Below, in pieces: positions 330-5,276 of a stretch of DNA of 5,276 nt. Within the stretch, counting starts at the first letter, position 1. Each line of letters opens with the position of its first letter. The notes beneath the pieces were generated by a model. The model made no database searches. It was given only the letters and a program-made list of their open reading frames with translations, and was not told the origin of the DNA. Position numbers and translations under genes: made by a program. The stretch is taken from the IMG/VR virus record IMGVR_UViG_2534681992_000020. The stretch is one strand, 5' to 3'. The DNA comes from a virus (taxonomy: Duplodnaviria > Heunggongvirae > Uroviricota > Caudoviricetes).

Positions 330-596
330 AAAAACTCCTGCCCGTAAGCTGGGCTGCTGAACAAATAAGGGGTTGCGCAGTATCTGGCGGTGGATGGCCG
401 CCGGTTGTCATAACTAAGTCGCCTCGTTGAAGCAACTGAGGTATGAAGTGTTGAGTTGATTTCAGCTGGTCACACCGACGTTCACGCGTCCGTTTCACCC
501 CTCGCACTCCCCGGAGCCTGCTGAAATTCAAGCTGCGGATCTAAGCGGTCATCGCAACGGTGAATCAGGTGGTTGCCGTATCGTTGTGTTGTTGCG

Positions 597-670
597 ACAT
601 GGTGATAATAGCCATTGCTATTGGTGATATTAATACTTATTGCTATTGTTAGATGTGTTTTGCTATTAAA
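597..670 (-). promoter_or_regulatory. OL-like operator cluster with a putative leftward promoter (pL-like)
   Basis: Three copies of TTGCTATT at 615-622, 640-647 and 660-667. The first lies in a perfect inverted repeat AATAGC-catt-GCTATT (607-622); the second is an imperfect version, AATACT-tatt-GCTATT (632-647). On the minus strand there is a -10 TATTAT (complement of 605-610) and a weak -35 TTAATA (complement of 628-633) with a 17-nt spacer. The same GCTATTAT element forms the -10 of the rightward promoter at 2585-2592. Confidence 0.45.
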
Positions 671-771
671 TGTTTGATGGCAAAAAGAATTAATTTTGTG
701 ACTTGAATCGCATAGCGATAACTGAAGCGAGGTCGTGGTGGTTTTTTGAACGGTTTGTGTGATGAGGGGAG

Positions 772-801
772 GCAAAAGAAAACCCGGCACGGTGGCCGGG
801 T
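772..801 (-). terminator. intrinsic (rho-independent) terminator ending the repressor operon
   Basis: Seven-bp stem ACCCGGC (782-788) paired with GCCGGGT (795-801) around a 6-nt loop. On the minus-strand RNA it is followed by UUUUCUUUUG (complement of 772-781). It begins 5 nt past the stop (806-808) of the 806-1747 gene. The plus-strand side also has a moderately U-rich tail (UAUCUUUAUU), so it may act in both directions. Confidence 0.75.
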
Positions 802-805
802 ATCT

Positions 806-1747
806 TTATTCGAATGGAAGATCTATTTGCCTTTGAGGATTCAACTGTTTTTTTACATGCTCAATTTCGAATATGGTTTTTATGGCATCTCCGATCATAT
901 ATTGAGTTACTTTTAAATCTACAAGTAACATATCACCTTTAGAAAAATTTAAGGTGTTGTTATCAATATCGCTGATGAATTTCTGGTCTTTTATTTCAGC
1001 CAAAAAGCTACTGGCACCATCAGAAAACCGCCACCGGCTTCCTTCATTGAAGGAAATATTTTTAATTTGAAGGGCTTTCTCTACTGTGTACTCTGAAATT
1101 ATTGATTCTGCTGGTAGATTGACTTTGAAATAATGTGCTTCTTGCTTGTTGATCGTCATGAATGTCAAACCATCATCGACAGTAGAGGCAAAGCTGTCAA
1201 TGCCTTCCTGCTCTAATGGCTTACTTATAACTTCTTGTAATGAAGAGCGAAGTTTAATATTTTTATAAAGTTCAATAACGTTACTGTCGTAGATCTCGCT
1301 TTCGTCATCAACAAAGACTTCGATGTTGCTATCAGGCAAATTGTGTAATTTTTTTATTTTCCTTGGACCTATCCATTTTATCAGTTGAATTAGGCCTTTG
1401 CATATTTTTTCTTTAGAACCAGGACAGAGTCCAATAAAAGCAATCAAATTCGCAGCGGCTGTTGCTGAATCGCCGGATAAAAAATCAACAGCCTGTTTGA
1501 ACCAAGATGTAGATGAGGCAACCAGATCTATTCCAAATGAGCCAGCTTTAAATGATGCATTGACTTTTACAGAAACAACAGTCTTGTTTCCGTAGAGAGT
1601 TTTACCGGCTTCCTCTAATGCATCTGATAGTGATAGAAGGGCAGGAGCAAGGTCTCGCACGTTCATTTCATGCGTTTCCAGTGCCGGACCGTCGTATACT
1701 ATCCTGAACTTCATATCATTGGTTTCCGAATTGTTGCCCGCATCCAT
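806..1747 (-). CDS. hypothetical protein (313 aa from ATG 1747; 317 aa if GTG 1759 is used) in the rexAB-equivalent position downstream of the repressor; candidate exclusion/defence gene, function unknown
   Basis: Long uninterrupted minus-strand ORF. The first ATG (1745-1747) follows a GGTGA Shine-Dalgarno-like element by about 9 nt. The gene is visibly AT-rich compared with flanking phage genes. It sits between the repressor stop (1821) and the terminator (782-801), in the same orientation as the repressor and with no terminator in the 1760-1820 spacer. I see no P-loop or other motif I can name. Confidence 0.8.
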   Translation of the reverse strand: MDAGNNSETNDMKFRIVYDGPALETHEMNVRDLAPALLSLSDALEEAGKTLYGNKTVVSVKVNASFKAGSFGIDLVASSTSWFKQAVDFLSGDSATAAANLIAFIGLCPGSKEKICKGLIQLIKWIGPRKIKKLHNLPDSNIEVFVDDESEIYDSNVIELYKNIKLRSSLQEVISKPLEQEGIDSFASTVDDGLTFMTINKQEAHYFKVNLPAESIISEYTVEKALQIKNISFNEGSRWRFSDGASSFLAEIKDQKFISDIDNNTLNFSKGDMLLVDLKVTQYMIGDAIKTIFEIEHVKKQLNPQRQIDLPFE

Positions 1748-1820
1748 TATGGCATTCACCTGATCACATATACAGTTAATTTACGATATTGTCTTAAATC
1801 TTAAAACTTCTATTGTATGG

Positions 1821-2513
1821 CTACCCATGCTTCCTATACGTCTGCGGCATGCTCCCAATAACCTTACCGAAGATGAACACCCGGTTCATCTCGTCTTTCT
1901 CGATCGGGTCCCAAGGTGAGTAGCTCTTGTTATCAGAGATAACCAGCAGCTTATCCTTCATCATTTGCAGACGCTTTACATGGGCTGTGTCGTCGTACAG
2001 AAACGCATAGATACCATCACCGTCGAAAGATTTAACCGTGATATCAACGAACAGCAGATCACCTGGTTCGATCGTTCCTGACATGCTGTCACCACGCACG
2101 TTAATGATGCGGATATTTTCCGCCTTCCTGCCATCGAACATGTGACGAGCATCGTCAAACGAGTACTCAACCGAGCGTAGAACTTCTACAAACTCACGAT
2201 TGATGACACCCGGCCCGGCACTGACTTCTATATCAAGAACGTCAATCTTGAAGTATTTGGAATGGTTGACAGCAGGCTTCCCTGATTGTTGACCGTCATT
2301 TCTCATCGGGCCTATGCCTGATGAGAGCCACTCAGTTCGAACACCCAATGCATTAGCTATTTCAACAATTTTTGTTGAGCCGCGCGCGTTGCCGCTTGTC
2401 AGTCTCCAGATTGTGGGTTGAGCTACGCCAGACGCCTTTGCAAGAGCGCCTTGAGACATTCCAGATTGTTCCATCGCTAGGTTTAAGCAATCAGCAAGAG
2501 TTTCTTTTTTCAT
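1821..2513 (-). CDS. cI: CI-type prophage repressor (N-terminal XRE-family HTH, C-terminal LexA-like S24 autopeptidase)
   Basis: HTH segment SQGALAKASGVAQPTIWRLTSG. Probable Ala-Gly autocleavage site in EVSAGPG. Catalytic serine motif GDSM and lysine motif VKRL, spaced as in LexA and lambda CI. I place the start at ATG 2511-2513 (MKKETL...) because a minus-strand promoter (-35 TTGACC, complement of 2544-2549; -10 TATAAA, complement of 2523-2528) would start transcription at or just before that ATG, giving a leaderless message as for lambda PRM-cI. The ORF track's 2549 start is a TTG with no ribosome-binding site. Confidence 0.9.
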   Translation of the reverse strand: MKKETLADCLNLAMEQSGMSQGALAKASGVAQPTIWRLTSGNARGSTKIVEIANALGVRTEWLSSGIGPMRNDGQQSGKPAVNHSKYFKIDVLDIEVSAGPGVINREFVEVLRSVEYSFDDARHMFDGRKAENIRIINVRGDSMSGTIEPGDLLFVDITVKSFDGDGIYAFLYDDTAHVKRLQMMKDKLLVISDNKSYSPWDPIEKDEMNRVFIFGKVIGSMPQTYRKHG

Positions 2514-2522
2514 AAGTTTTAA

Positions 2523-2607
2523 TTTATACGCTTGCGTATTGATGGTCAAAACACGTTTTGCTATTGATTGGGTTAATACGCATTGCTATTATCTATTCAT
2601 TGCAATA
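2523..2607. promoter_or_regulatory. OR-like operator cluster with divergent promoters (PRM-like leftward, PR-like rightward)
   Basis: Repeats related to the OL sites: ATACGC-tt-GCGTAT palindrome (2526-2539) over the PRM -10; AACACG-tttt-GCTATT (2550-2565) abutting the PRM -35 and overlapping the PR -35; AATACG-catt-GCTATT (2575-2590) overlapping the PR -10; ATTGCAAT palindrome (2599-2606) near the PR +1. PR has -35 TTGATT (2564-2569), a 17-nt spacer and -10 TATTAT (2587-2592). The 2550-2565 site is centred about 43 bp upstream of the predicted PRM start, the position from which lambda CI at OR2 activates PRM. Confidence 0.6.
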
Positions 2608-2875: not shown

Positions 2876-3421
2876 ATGACTATGCAATCACTTACATACC
2901 AACAGACTAGCGGATTTAGCCCGACTGCGGTGATAAATCGTTCTCAAACAAAACAGGCGCCAGGCCACGAAAAAATCCGTGATGCCGTTCGCGCCTGGTC
3001 GGCTGCAGATAATCAGGATGTTGTTGCCGCACTCATTGTGAATGAGTATCGGGAGCAGGGCGGCGGCACCATCGATTTCCCTGATGATGTCAGCCGTGCA
3101 CGCCAGAAGCTGTTCCGCTTCCTCGATAACAAATTCGATTCTGAAAAATACCGAAATAACGTGCGTGAACTGACCCCGGCAATTCTGGCGGTACTACCGC
3201 TGGAATATCGCGGCCACCTGGTTGGGCAGGATAGCTTCATGGCTCGGCTGGCTGAAATGGAAAAGGAACTCAGTGAGGCAAAACAGGCTGTCATTCTCAA
3301 CGCACCACGCCACCAGAAACTGAAGGAGATGAGTGAAGGCATTGTGTCGATGTTTCGTGTGGACCCGGATCTGGCTGGTCCACTGATGGCGATGGTCACC
3401 ACCATGCTGGGGGCAATATGA
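2876..3421 (+). CDS. YdaT-family protein (functional analogue of CII in YdaS/YdaT-type immunity regions)
   Basis: Occupies the cII position immediately after cro. The motifs NEYREQGGGTIDFP and LTPAILAVLPLEYRGHL match, from memory, the conserved core of E. coli YdaT-family proteins. Start is ATG 2876 or 2882; the second has better spacing to the AGG at 2872-2873. Its stop overlaps an in-frame ATG of the next reading frame (ATGA at 3418-3421). Confidence 0.7.
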   Translation: MTMQSLTYQQTSGFSPTAVINRSQTKQAPGHEKIRDAVRAWSAADNQDVVAALIVNEYREQGGGTIDFPDDVSRARQKLFRFLDNKFDSEKYRNNVRELTPAILAVLPLEYRGHLVGQDSFMARLAEMEKELSEAKQAVILNAPRHQKLKEMSEGIVSMFRVDPDLAGPLMAMVTTMLGAI

Positions 3422-3507
3422 CAGGTTCAGAAATGGCGAAAGCCGGTCTGCGCGAACAGAACCGACTTTCAGGTGCAAATCGTAACACACTCATTGCGGG
3501 AGGAATT

Positions 3508-4437
3508 ATGGCAAACACTGCTGAGATATTCAATTTTCCAGTGCCGGATGTGGCACAAAAGGAGCCGCGCGTGGCAGATCTCGATGATGGTTATACGCGC
3601 ATTGCAAATGAGTTGCTGGAAGCTGTAATGCTGGCCGGATTAAAACAGCACCAGCTTCTGGTCTTCCTGGCTGTCATGCGCAAAACATATGGCTTTAATA
3701 AAAAACTGGATTGGGTGAGCAACGAGCAACTTTCCGAATTGACCGGGATATTGCCGCACAAGTGTTCTGCTGCAAAAAGCGTTCTGGTAAAGCGTGGGAT
3801 TCTTATTCAGAGCGGGCGGAATATCGGCATCAATAATGTGGTCAGTGAATGGTCAACATTACCCGAATCAGGTAAGAAAAATAAAGTTTACCTGAAAGAG
3901 GTAAATTTACCTGAGTCAGGTAAGAAAAGTTTACCCAAATCAGGTAAAGGCACTTACCCGAATCAGGTAAACACAAAAGACAAACTAACAAAAGACAATA
4001 TAAAACCTTTTTCGTCCGAGAATTCTGACGAATCCTCTGACCAGCCAGAAAATGCCCTTCCTGTGGTGAAACCGGATGCTGCGATTCAGAGCGGCAGCAA
4101 GTGGGGGACAGCAGAAGACCTGACCGCCGCAGAGTGGATGTTTGACATGGTGAAGACCATCGCGCCATCAGCCAGAAAACCGAATTTTGCAGGGTGGGCT
4201 AACGATATTCGCCTGATGCGTGAACGTGACGGACGTAACCACCGCGACATGTGCGTGCTGTTCCGCTGGGCATGCCAGGACAACTTCTGGTCCGGTAACG
4301 TGCTAAGTCCGGCCAAACTCCGCGACAAGTGGACCCAACTCGAAATCAACCGTAACAAGCAACAGGCTGGCGTGACAGCCGGAAAACCAAAACTCGACCT
4401 GACGAACACTGACTGGATTTACGGGGTGGAGCTATGA
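3508..4437 (+). CDS. O: replication initiation protein O (lambda O family) with a divergent iteron-binding N-terminal domain and a lambda-like C-terminal domain
   Basis: ATG 3508 has a GGAGG (3498-3502) 5 nt upstream. The N-terminus MANTAEIFNF...VADLDDGYTRIANELLEA aligns with lambda O (MTNTAKILNF...VADLDDGYARLSNMLLEA, recalled). The C-terminal ~110 aa (SKWGTAEDLTAAEWMFDMVKTIAPSARKPNFAGWANDIRLMRERDGRNHRDMCVLFRW...WIYGVEL) look almost identical to lambda O as I recall it. Iterons lie inside the gene. The ORF track's 3418 start adds 30 residues with no counterpart in lambda O. Confidence 0.9.
   Translation: MANTAEIFNFPVPDVAQKEPRVADLDDGYTRIANELLEAVMLAGLKQHQLLVFLAVMRKTYGFNKKLDWVSNEQLSELTGILPHKCSAAKSVLVKRGILIQSGRNIGINNVVSEWSTLPESGKKNKVYLKEVNLPESGKKSLPKSGKGTYPNQVNTKDKLTKDNIKPFSSENSDESSDQPENALPVVKPDAAIQSGSKWGTAEDLTAAEWMFDMVKTIAPSARKPNFAGWANDIRLMRERDGRNHRDMCVLFRWACQDNFWSGNVLSPAKLRDKWTQLEINRNKQQAGVTAGKPKLDLTNTDWIYGVEL
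3859..3970. repeat. origin of replication: five iterons (TTACC-N7-GGTAA) followed by an A-rich tract (3971-4013)
   Basis: Iterons at 3859-3876 (ttacccgaatcaggtaag), 3888-3904 (ttacctgaaagaggtaa), 3907-3924 (ttacctgagtcaggtaag), 3931-3949 (ttacccaaatcaggtaaag) and 3954-3970 (ttacccgaatcaggtaa). Each has perfect inverted arms TTACC/GGTAA. They are followed by acacaaaagacaaactaacaaaagacaatataaaacc. This matches lambda ori architecture (iterons plus AT-rich region inside O) but the iteron sequence differs from lambda. Confidence 0.8.
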
Positions 4438-5087
4438 AAAACATCGCCGCACAGATGGTTAATTTTGACCGTGAGCAGATGCGCCGGATCGCCAATAACA
4501 TGCCGGAACAGTACGACGAAAAGCCGCAGGTACAGCAGGTAGCGCAGATTATCAATGGTGTGTTCAGCCAGTTACTGGCAACTTTCCCGGCGAGCCTGGC
4601 TAACCGGGACCAGAATGAACTGAACGAAATCCGCCGCCAGTGGGTTCTGGCTTTCCGGGAAAACGGGATCACCACGATGGAACAGGTTAACGCAGGAATG
4701 CGCGTAGCCCGTCGGCAGAATCGACCATTTCTGCCATCACCCGGGCAGTTTGTTGCATGGTGCCGGGAAGAAGCATCCGTTATCGCCGGACTGCCAAACG
4801 TCAGCGAGCTGGTTGATATGGTTTACGAGTATTGCCGGAAGCGAGGCCTGTATCCGGATGCGGAGTCTTATCCGTGGAAATCAAACGCGCACTACTGGCT
4901 GGTTACCAACCTGTATCAGAACATGCGGGCCAATGCGCTTACTGATGCGGAATTACGCCGTAAGGCCGCAGATGAGCTTGTCCATATGACTGCGAGAATT
5001 AACCGTGGTGAGGCGATCCCTGAACCAGTAAAACAACTTCCTGTCATGGGCGGTAGACCTCTAAATCGTGGTAAGCGTACAGCCTGA
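4434..5087 (+). CDS. P: replication protein P (lambda P, DnaB helicase loader), C-terminally truncated and fused to IS-derived codons
   Basis: The start overlaps the O stop (ATGA at 4434-4437), as in lambda. Residues 1 to about 212 (MKNIAAQMVNFDREQMRRIANNMPEQYDEKPQVQQ...PVMGGRPLNR) match lambda P as I recall it. After codon 212 the sequence departs from lambda (expected AQALAKIAEIKAKFGLKGASV) and reads GKRTA-stop, encoded by the inserted element starting at about 5071. Confidence 0.9.
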   Translation: MKNIAAQMVNFDREQMRRIANNMPEQYDEKPQVQQVAQIINGVFSQLLATFPASLANRDQNELNEIRRQWVLAFRENGITTMEQVNAGMRVARRQNRPFLPSPGQFVAWCREEASVIAGLPNVSELVDMVYEYCRKRGLYPDAESYPWKSNAHYWLVTNLYQNMRANALTDAELRRKAADELVHMTARINRGEAIPEPVKQLPVMGGRPLNRGKRTA

Positions 5088-5276
5088 ACCGTCTGGTCAG
5101 AATCTGACGAATTAGACAAAGTGGTGTCCACCAAATAAGTAGTGGGAACCAAAGTGTCAGATATGCAGAAAAATGTGACTCCCGGCAGGCGAAAAGGCTG
5201 CCCTAATTATCCTCCCGAATTTAAACAGCAGCTCGTTGCTGCCTCCTGTGAACCCGGGATATCCATCTCAAAACTT
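5071..5276 (+). mobile_element. left end of an insertion sequence (probably IS66-family-like) inserted into the 3' end of P; continues beyond the window
   Basis: Lambda-like P sequence stops abruptly after ...aaatcgtg (5070). The new sequence begins GTAAGCG (5071-5077), the terminal motif I recall for IS66-family inverted repeats. A transposase-type ORF starts 92 bp inside. The right end and any target-site duplication are outside the window. Confidence 0.55.
5163..5276 (+). CDS. transposase accessory protein OrfA/TnpA (HTH), N-terminal 38 codons; partial at the right edge
   Basis: ATG at 5163; open frame to the end of the window reading MQKNVTPGRRKGCPNYPPEFKQQLVAASCEPGISISKL. The Y-x2-EFK-x2-V...S-x-S pattern is typical of the small HTH first ORF of IS3/IS66-type elements. 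It is absent from the ORF track only because it has no stop inside the window. Confidence 0.6.
   Translation, partial: MQKNVTPGRRKGCPNYPPEFKQQLVAASCEPGISISKL

Follow-up and report, generated by a model that had tools for sequence, protein, structure and literature searches.

A predicted lambda-type operator switch in a prophage immunity region with an ST104/BTP1-type repressor

Introduction

In phage lambda, the cI and cro genes diverge from one another, and three operator sites are found at each of OR and OL. Sites 1 and 2 overlap the lytic promoters, site 3 overlaps PRM, and OR2 is next to the PRM -35 element. Lambda cI combines a helix-turn-helix with an S24 domain, no Shine-Dalgarno sequence precedes its gene, and a cargo operon 3′ of cI ends in a terminator, with OL and OR separated by about 2 kb. 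The lambda operators are 17 bp long and are spaced 24/23 bp apart. The operator of phage 434 is 14 bp (ACAA-N6-TTGT) and has short outer half-sites around a central stretch that varies between sites.

A switch with other protein families has been described for the PaaR2/YdaS/YdaT region of CP-933P in E. coli O157:H7 (Jurenas et al. 2021, PMC8630535). Its Cro and CII belong to the YdaS and YdaT families, PRM, PR and PL are accompanied by sets of sites at OL and OR with the repeat consensus GTTTAGTAA, and a toxin-antitoxin pair is carried downstream of the repressor, PaaR2, a 15 kDa protein that lacks an S24 domain. Also close to the locus studied here is the immunity region of the Salmonella phages BTP1, ST104, ST160 and SE1. 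The 'ST104' repressor type was named by Villafane et al. 2008, whose rule predicts a common specificity for repressors that are at least 92% identical (PMC2629481), and in BTP1 lysogens cI and bstA form one operon with a single start site (PMC7067206). Our literature searches, made with the operator sequence and for BTP1/ST104 operators, found no operator map and no binding, footprint or transcript data for this repressor.

Here we analyze a stretch of phage DNA of 5,276 nucleotides (the window) and compare it with these systems. The window very probably holds a lambdoid prophage immunity region that is organised as the lambda genetic switch, with operators to which cI and Cro would bind.

Results

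The window encodes a cI repressor of 230 aa on the minus strand (1821-2513) and, divergent from it, a Cro of 75 aa on the plus strand (2624-2851); the 110-bp gap between the two genes (2514-2623) holds PR and PRM back to back. Pfam matches cI to HTH_3 (E 2.1e-6, above cut-off, residues 13-63), with the recognition helix QPTIWRL at residues 32-38, and to Peptidase_S24 (E 1.3e-18), and UmuD is matched in the PDB. The residues expected of an S24 protein were found as an Ala99-Gly100 cleavage site, GDSM at 141-144 (Ser143) and VKRL at 179-182 (Lys181). Having an N-terminal helix-turn-helix and an S24 domain with a Ser/Lys dyad and an Ala-Gly site, cI appears to be a repressor of the LexA/lambda-cI type. 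The best PDB match to residues 12-67 was the N-terminal domain of the phage 434 repressor (E ~1e-4), although the two sequences are only weakly similar and have different recognition helices. Cro is a YdaS-family protein (Pfam YdaS_toxin, E 9.6e-15) with a weak P22_Cro match; its closest solved structures are the Cro proteins 3bd1 and 5w8y, and it has a recognition helix, QPTVWRW, similar to the one in cI. The operon slot that holds rexAB in lambda and bstA in BTP1 is taken, downstream of cI, by a cargo gene (minus strand, 806-1759; RefSeq start at the ATG at 1747), which matches PDC-S42 in PADLOC (E 3.4e-86) and the LAPAL family in NCBIfam (E 1.9e-80) but has no match in Pfam. The cI-cargo operon ends at an intrinsic terminator (minus strand, 782-801) with the stem ACCCGGC/GCCGGGT followed by TTTTCTTTT.

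This layout follows lambda in its divergent cI and cro genes, in the domains of cI, in the terminated cargo operon 3′ of cI and in the distance between the operator clusters (1968 bp from OL1 to OR1). In contrast to lambda, Cro is of the YdaS type, the cII slot is filled by a YdaT-type gene and no N gene follows PL. The Cro and CII families, the three promoters with their OL and OR site sets and the cargo downstream of the repressor are shared with CP-933P. However, the window cI has an S24 domain, its sites are unrelated to the PaaR2 operators, and we therefore rejected the PaaR2/CP-933P immunity type for this locus. An O157:H7 match proved to encode not PaaR2 but the same cI as the window, with a SIR2 cargo.

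Among the closest known systems is the Salmonella BTP1/ST104/ST160/SE1 region. The BTP1 cI is 85% identical to the window cI overall, which is below the 92% rule, though the helix-turn-helix stretch SQGALAKASGVAQPTIWRLTSGNA is identical. Both regions also have the same half-sites at OR and OL and the same three promoters, whereas the BTP1 region differs in its cargo (bstA rather than PDC-S42), in having an N gene, a P22-type cII and other replication genes, in the spacers between sites and in host genus. With the same recognition helix and the same operator half-sites, the window cI can be assigned, as judged from sequence, to the ST104/BTP1 repressor type. The original prediction had spoken of an apparently uncharacterised immunity type; the locus is no orphan, since its type is common to BTP1, and the description holds to the extent that we found no published operator map. 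This repressor type also occurs in phages 4A7, 4C10 and Perceval and in Klebsiella prophages, and 718 of 5426 complete E. coli genomes (~13%) carry the module.

We then analyzed the repeats on either side of the cI operon. The motif TTGCTATT occurs five times in the window, always on the plus strand (starts 615, 640, 660, 2558 and 2583), against 0.26 occurrences expected, and a count of five was reached in 0 of 200 shuffles. Three copies lie at 615-667 and two at 2558-2590, so that the motif is confined to the two clusters, as had been claimed; only the bare hexamer GCTATT has one extra copy in the window, within cI at 2356. Three copies had been predicted on the left, which agrees with the exact count. 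For the right-hand cluster three to four had been proposed, where just two are exact, the third is a variant palindrome and the fourth a weak candidate. When three or fewer mismatches to the 16-mer were allowed, the window gave 11 matches against 2.3 expected. (A match to TTGCTATT in PMC12457610 turned out to be a Legionella primer.) The operator consensus is 16 bp long, AATAss-N4-ssTATT, with a half-site AATAss whose positions 1-4 are nearly invariant. It is thus 1 bp shorter than the lambda site, and it resembles the 434 operator in its short outer half-sites around a variable centre.

On the left, OL1 (607-622, AATAGCCATTGCTATT) is a perfect palindrome, AATAGC-N4-GCTATT, whose left half holds the PL -10 element. 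It is followed by OL2 (632-647, AATACTTATTGCTATT), which is kept in 4A7, BTP1 and the Klebsiella phage, and by OL3 (652-667, GATGTGTTTTGCTATT), the weakest site, with a good right half only, and the most polymorphic one among close relatives. On the right, OR1 (2575-2590, AATACGCATTGCTATT) holds the PR -10 element in its right half, and OR2 (2550-2565, AACACGTTTTGCTATT) abuts the PRM -35 element and overlaps that of PR by 2 bp. OR3 (2525-2540, TATACGCTTGCGTATT; ATACGC-TT-GCGTAT) is a variant palindrome that overlaps the PRM -10 element and spacer; it is centred at -19.5 from the cI ATG and is nearly invariant in relatives. From centre to centre, the OL sites are 25 and 20 bp apart and the OR sites 25 and 25 bp; similar spacing had been noted for the two clusters.

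The prophage was scanned with a matrix built only from the Salmonella (BTP1), Klebsiella and Fraca sites. Over the 50-kb prophage, the ten best matches all fell within OL or OR, and the next best score was 12.7 as compared with 14.3-20.8. The sites scored 20.8 (OL1), 20.0 (OL2), 12.5 (OL3), 20.7 (OR1), 18.5 (OR2) and 14.3 (OR3), with OL3 and OR3 far below the others. A further match, on the minus strand at 2604-2619 (AATACCAATAGGAATT; 15.6), lies in the cro leader and overlaps the cro Shine-Dalgarno sequence. Its score exceeds that of OR3, its left half-site, (A/T)ATAC, occupies the same position in 4A7, Klebsiella phi8.2 and BTP1, and CP-933P, which has the same Cro and CII families, has four equally spaced repeats (PMC8630535). 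Nevertheless, we consider it rather unlikely that this is a functional fourth operator on the right: its right half reads GAATT in place of the invariant TATT, only the left half is kept in relatives, its distance from OR1 is 29 bp, not 25 bp, and close relatives are polymorphic at 2606, 2611 and 2612. Moreover, the right half falls on the ribosome-binding site of cro, and this by itself could account for the conservation. We retain three sites at each cluster: the region appears to be a tripartite switch of the lambda type, with three related dyad sites at both OL and OR that overlap the promoters.

The predicted promoters fit these sites. PL (minus strand, 605-633) has the -35 element TTAATA (633-628), N17 and the -10 element TATTAT (610-605), with a predicted start at ~598. 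PR (plus strand, 2564-2592) has TTGATT (2564-2569), N17 and TATTAT (2587-2592) with a TG upstream of the -10 element, and a predicted start at ~2599; its architecture is the same in BTP1, the Klebsiella phage and Fraca. PRM (minus strand, 2521-2549) has TTGACC (2549-2544), N17 and TAAATT (2526-2521), followed by 7 nt (AAAACTT) and the cI ATG. These are the only sensibly placed sigma-70 matches of a promoter scan, which gave 4 sites as compared with 6.1 in shuffles, i.e. fewer; the promoter calls accordingly rest on position, not on statistics. That the -10 hexamer TATTAT is embedded in an operator half-site, as originally predicted, holds for both PL and PR, in each case within GCTATTAT. The geometry of OL relative to PL is identical to that of OR relative to PR, with site 1 centred at -16.5 and site 2 at -41.5 from the predicted start; OR2 is also centred at -44.5 from the cI ATG.

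The inward promoter had been placed 0-3 nt before the cI ATG. This was not borne out, as the PRM -10 element ends 7 nt before the A of the ATG (2513); the distance of 0-1 nt to the ATG applies to the predicted PRM start point and not to the promoter. Since the -10 element is 7 nt from the ATG and no Shine-Dalgarno sequence is present before it, it is plausible that the cI mRNA is leaderless or has a 1-nt leader. A leaderless cI-like mRNA was demonstrated by 5′ RACE and N-terminal sequencing for the YdaS/YdaT-type switch of CP-933P (PMC8630535). Lambda is a further experimental precedent for such an arrangement of cI. Alternatively, the operators could be real and the mRNA could start further upstream, from another promoter or from a PRE-like promoter beyond cro, or it could be translated from a TTG at 2549. 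The mechanically called cI ORF does reach this TTG, and the RefSeq annotation of BTP1 c1 starts at its equivalent. However, the PRM -35 hexamer TTGACC begins with this TTG, and the 12 additional codons would span OR3 and are missing from the repressors of PhiR47_2, HK639 and Klebsiella ST101, which align from MK. Neither start codon is preceded by a Shine-Dalgarno sequence, and the exact 7-nt gap between the -10 element and the ATG is retained in BTP1, ST-87 and Klebsiella phi8.2 despite a change in its sequence. We regard this alternative as rather unlikely for this locus. In Fraca, which has the same type of operator, a normal Shine-Dalgarno sequence (GGAGG) precedes cI; leaderless expression is therefore not fixed for ST104/BTP1-type immunity. 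The supplements consulted from the D23580 transcriptome papers give expression values and gene coordinates, and no start-site position for the BTP1 cI; its start would be expected near position 379527 of FN424405, 36 nt within the annotated CDS (378838-379563).

Comparison with relatives supports the operator reading in two ways. First, across Salmonella BTP1 and ST-87, Klebsiella ST11-VIM1phi8.2 and coliphage Fraca, whose cI proteins have a common recognition helix (QPTIWRL/I), the half-sites are kept while the spacers diverge, in the manner of a footprint. In a set of 80 near-identical loci, variation affects 2 of 30 positions in half-sites versus 22 of 81 other positions (Fisher p=0.014). 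Second, PhiR47_2 offers a natural domain swap. Its cI is 100% identical to that of the window in the C-terminal domain but only 48.6% identical over residues 1-75. At the DNA level it differs only at 600-689 (OL) and 2260-2889 (the cI N-terminus, OR and cro), where identity falls to 40-70%, whereas the flanks of both patches are 93-100% identical. In both patches an ACAACC/GGTTGT-type repeat takes the place of the window motif, i.e. the operator sequence co-varies with the DNA-binding domain of cI and with cro. This swap is the strongest evidence for reading the repeats as operators. It is very improbable that they are instead shared promoter elements (the -10 TATTAT and A/T-rich upstream DNA) or boundaries of recombination modules: the surroundings are A/T-rich, two of the six sites overlap -10 hexamers and both clusters adjoin mosaic junctions, yet OL2, OL3, OR2 and OR3 have the same half-site off these -10 elements, the junctions are found beyond the repeats and not in them, the motif and the helix-turn-helix domain with cro change together and never one without the other, and a dimeric helix-turn-helix protein needs just such a dyad of fixed 16-bp span. 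Half-site conservation, the relatives-only matrix, the co-replacement in PhiR47_2 and the promoter placement with its identical geometry all agree with the operator reading.

Discussion

These observations suggest a model in which cI and the YdaS-type Cro would bind the same six 16-bp pseudo-palindromes. OR1 and OR2 would cover the -10 and -35 elements of PR, OR3 would cover the core of the divergent PRM, and OL1 and OL2 would occupy the matching positions relative to PL. PL and PR would be silenced in a lysogen by repressor bound at OL1/2 and OR1/2, and occupancy of OR3 would lead to negative autoregulation. The PRM mRNA is predicted to begin at the cI AUG or 1 nt before it and to run through the PDC-S42 cargo to the terminator at 782-801. 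OR2, which abuts the PRM -35 element, may stimulate PRM. In lambda, OR2 is centred at about -42, and the window OR2 (-44.5 from the ATG) is 2-3 bp further out; in addition, the acidic residues by which lambda cI activates PRM are all absent from helix 2 of the helix-turn-helix in the window cI. Given this position and this helix, positive control of PRM is uncertain. Binding itself is inferred for this switch, as are the order in which the sites fill, cooperativity or looping between OL and OR, activation of PRM, the points where transcription starts, and induction that depends on RecA.

The feature is real but canonical, and its layout is textbook: our understanding of lambda-style switches is unchanged. 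What is gained is an operator map that can be tested, with the consensus AATAss-N4-ssTATT, six sites and three promoters, for a named repressor type for which we found none. Such a map would aid the prediction of cross-immunity among ST104/BTP1-type prophages, the interpretation of the high spontaneous induction reported for BTP1, and the engineering of the cI-linked slot for defence genes. A more speculative consequence follows from the exchange of matched OL and cI-N-terminal domain/OR/cro cassettes around an identical C-terminal domain, by which mixed dimers or oligomers could form between repressors of different specificity in polylysogens. We regard it as doubtful that such mixing occurs and that the operator set defines one cross-genus immunity group. 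If it were true, mixed repressor oligomers would couple or disturb one another's immunity and induction in polylysogens, and through the operator set the epidemic Salmonella phage BTP1 would belong to one immunity group with ~13% of E. coli genomes.

The PL leader (330-598) was considered as a put-like antiterminator RNA and rejected, as it does not resemble the pL-proximal DNA of HK022 or HK639; its fold is no more stable than those of shuffles (z = -1.07). An apparent 78-aa ORF with an arginine-rich start in this leader is broken by a 2-nt indel in 4A7, and the sole Rfam match in the whole window is a chance match to a miRNA. One match to a YdaT-type site, with a single mismatch, is present at 2618-2635, but the YdaT-like protein of the window is only remotely related to the YdaT that has been studied and solved (E 3e-4).

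Predicted operators flank the cI operon

The window represents the early-control region of a lambdoid prophage. From 560 to 2900 it shares 100% identity with E. coli 2013C-3264, in which the region lies within a ~45-kb lambda-like prophage adjoining dsdC/torI, and coliphages 4A7, 4C10, 1W, 3W and Perceval are ~97% identical to the window, the cargo gene downstream of cI excepted. The minus strand carries kil (123-329), the cargo gene (806-1759) and cI (1821-2513), and the plus strand carries cro (2624-2851), a YdaT-type gene in the cII slot (2876-3421), O (3418-4437) and P (4434-5087). The left promoter and operators (PL/OL, 605-667) lie between a non-coding leader (330-598) and a terminator (782-801), and the right operators (OR, 2525-2590) between cI and cro. 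From ~5071, the 3′ end of P is interrupted by an IS66-like element (5071-5276; TnpA start ~5154) that is multi-copy in E. coli genomes; because P is uninterrupted in 2013C-3264, the source prophage may be defective in replication. The interval between PL and kil has no N-like antiterminator gene. Its 270-nt leader (330-598, minus strand) is kept in 4A7 and PhiR47_2 and is non-coding because a 2-nt indel disrupts the sole ORF; it has no similarity to the put RNA of HK022 or HK639, and its predicted folding is not unusually stable (z = -1.07).

The original prediction, that GCTATT-type half-sites recur in two clusters, was confirmed with minor corrections. TTGCTATT occurs five times in the window, on the plus strand only (starts 615, 640, 660, 2558 and 2583), against 0.26 expected, and 200 shuffles never yielded that many copies. 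The complete dyad AATAGC-N4-GCTATT is present at 607-622, and the 16-mer with up to three mismatches has 11 matches versus 2.3 expected; bare GCTATT has one additional copy, at 2356 within cI. The resulting sites are OL1 (607-622), OL2 (632-647) and OL3 (652-667), with centres 25 and 20 bp apart, and OR3 (2525-2540), OR2 (2550-2565) and OR1 (2575-2590), with centres 25 and 25 bp apart. Three to four right-hand copies had been proposed; two are exact, one is a variant and the fourth, at 2604-2619, is a weak candidate. The variant, OR3 (TATACGCTTGCGTATT), lacks TTGCTATT and forms a dyad from the sister half-site AATACG.

Two further elements were noted near these clusters. Immediately upstream of OL3, TTGATGGCAAAAAGAATTAATTTT (672-695) is kept in E. 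coli, Salmonella (TTGATAGCAAAATGAATTTATTTT) and Klebsiella relatives despite diverged surroundings and, by analogy with lambda, may serve PL as an IHF or UP-type element. At 2618-2635, running across the cro start codon, TTGATAATGACAAATCAA differs at one base from the published YdaT operator TTGATT-N6-AATCAA (0.04 expected); this match may be chance, since the YdaT-like protein of the window is remote from the studied YdaT (E 3e-4).

Half-sites are conserved while spacers drift

Homologues of cI with 74-85% identity fall in three groups: Salmonella P22-like phages (BTP1, ST104, ST160, SE1 and ST-87), Klebsiella phage ST11-VIM1phi8.2 and coliphage Fraca (77%). Between cI and cro, these relatives preserve the three sites nearly base for base while the inter-site spacers diverge (GATTGGGTT, GCTTTGGTT and GCTAAAGCC), and OL has the same conservation pattern. 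Pooling 21 sites gave a half-site of A36 A42 T39 A40 (of 42), with C/G at the next two positions. A weight matrix built from the BTP1, Klebsiella and Fraca sites only was used for the whole-prophage motif search proposed with the original prediction; across 50 kb of the 2013C-3264 prophage, the ten top matches were all within OL and OR, and the next match scored 12.7 versus 14.3-20.8 for OR3 to OL1. The order of the scores (OR1 20.7, OR2 18.5, OR3 14.3; OL1 20.8, OL2 20.0, OL3 12.5) is a lambda-like hierarchy. Among 80 viral contigs whose cI is 99-100% identical, we found 30 OR haplotypes, with 2 of 30 half-site positions variable versus 22 of 81 others (Fisher p=0.014); variation was concentrated in the OR2-OR1 spacer and the bases directly after OR1. 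In ST-87, the A run that follows the cI ATG is one base shorter (ATGAAAAAG versus ATGAAAAAAG), so that no full-length ORF begins at that ATG, reflecting either a frameshifted repressor or a homopolymer sequencing error.

A natural swap in PhiR47_2

The cI of PhiR47_2 is 100% identical to that of the window over residues 111-230 and 48.6% identical over residues 1-75, and its recognition helix differs. At the DNA level, the flanks are 93-100% identical and only two separate patches diverge (40-70%): 600-689, which is exactly OL, and 2260-2889, which comprises the cI N-terminal half, OR and cro. Both patches bear another repeat, of ACAACC..GGTTGT type, which accompanies the related helix both in Klebsiella ST101-KPC2phi6.1 and, in the form ATAACC..GGTTAT, in HK639. 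These non-adjacent patches swap jointly with the DNA-binding domain and cro, the pattern that immunity specificity predicts; such joint change would be hard to explain if the repeats were promoter elements alone. Together with the spacer drift and the matrix search, this exchange supports the operator interpretation. The pair is a clean example of split-module exchange involving two matched cassettes (OL; cI-NTD/OR/cro). Such heteroimmune phages, whose repressors share identical C-terminal domains, raise the possibility that mixed repressor oligomers may form in polylysogens or double lysogens.

Promoters and a predicted leaderless cI transcript

Scanning 300-2900 for promoter consensus matches gave four sites, among them the predicted PL, PR and PRM; since four is not above chance (6.1 in shuffles), the promoter calls are argued from position. 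The outward promoters are PL (633-605, minus strand; TTAATA-17-TATTAT) and PR (2564-2592, plus strand; TTGATT-17-TATTAT, with an upstream TG), and the -10 hexamers of both lie within GCTATTAT, as anticipated. Measured upstream from the predicted start, the distance to the site centre is 16.5 bp for OL1 and OR1 and 41.5 bp for OL2 and OR2. The inward promoter PRM (2549-2521, minus strand; TTGACC-17-TAAATT) had been placed 0-3 nt before the cI ATG; its -10 instead ends 7 nt before the A of the ATG (2513), so transcription is predicted to begin at that A or at the preceding T. This ATG has no Shine-Dalgarno sequence before it, and the TTG at 2549, the cI start in a mechanical ORF list, forms the first three bases of the PRM -35. 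The 7-nt gap is exactly conserved in BTP1 (GAATATT), Klebsiella phi8.2 (TGAAATT) and the window (AAAACTT) although the sequences differ, which argues in favor of a leaderless cI mRNA. Also in favor, BTP1 cI-bstA is a single operon with one mapped start site (PMC7067206), and in the CP-933P switch, whose Cro and CII families are those of the window, RACE and N-terminal sequencing proved the repressor mRNA to be leaderless (PMC8630535). GGAGG precedes cI in Fraca, however, which speaks against leaderless cI as a general rule.

A model for the switch

The switch has the architecture of lambda. cI contains HTH_3 and Peptidase_S24 domains, with Ala99-Gly100, Ser143 and Lys181 in the expected motifs, and its closest solved structures are 434 repressor (N-terminal domain) and UmuD (C-terminal domain). 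Cro is of the YdaS family, with Cro proteins as its closest solved structures, and a YdaT-family protein occupies the cII slot. The recognition helices of Cro (GVAQPTVWRW) and cI (GVAQPTIWRL) are alike.

By analogy with lambda, from which we infer every binding step, repressor dimers on OL1/OL2 and OR1/OR2 would block PL and PR. OR2 adjoins the PRM -35, and repressor there may aid RNA polymerase at PRM; two cautions are that the OR2 centre lies at -44.5 from the cI ATG and that helix 2 of cI lacks the acidic residues used by lambda cI. OR3 would mediate negative autoregulation at high repressor levels, and Cro would fill the same sites in reverse order. PRM would yield a leaderless cI-cargo mRNA ending at the terminator (782-801), and induction would proceed via RecA-stimulated self-cleavage of the repressor.

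Specificity, distribution and cargo

The operator specificity matches the 'ST104' repressor type, a predicted specificity that Villafane et al. 2008 (PMC2629481) treated as distinct and unstudied; the BTP1 repressor is of this type, and its helix-turn-helix stretch is identical to that of the window. Elements of this kind are thoroughly characterised. The operator map itself appears to be new, because the BTP1 papers examined describe the cI-bstA operon and no operators, and a literature search combining 'repressor' with the PR operator sequence found no relevant paper. The immunity module is common: 718 of 5426 complete E. coli genomes carry 2290-2860 at ≥95% identity, and 509 IMG/VR contigs encode a cI relative. 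Carriers from E. coli, Salmonella and Klebsiella may together constitute a single cross-genus immunity group.

The cargo gene (806-1759, minus strand), co-transcribed with cI, matches PDC-S42, a candidate defence family of PADLOC (E 3.4e-86), as well as the NCBIfam 'LAPAL motif' family, and has no Pfam domain. Elsewhere, beside the same or a related cI, this slot holds BstA (BTP1), GevT/GevA (PhiR47_2), a SIR2 protein (O157:H7 Z1834) or, in Klebsiella phages, a ParA-like protein or RexAB; the slot downstream of cI is a defence-gene hotspot.
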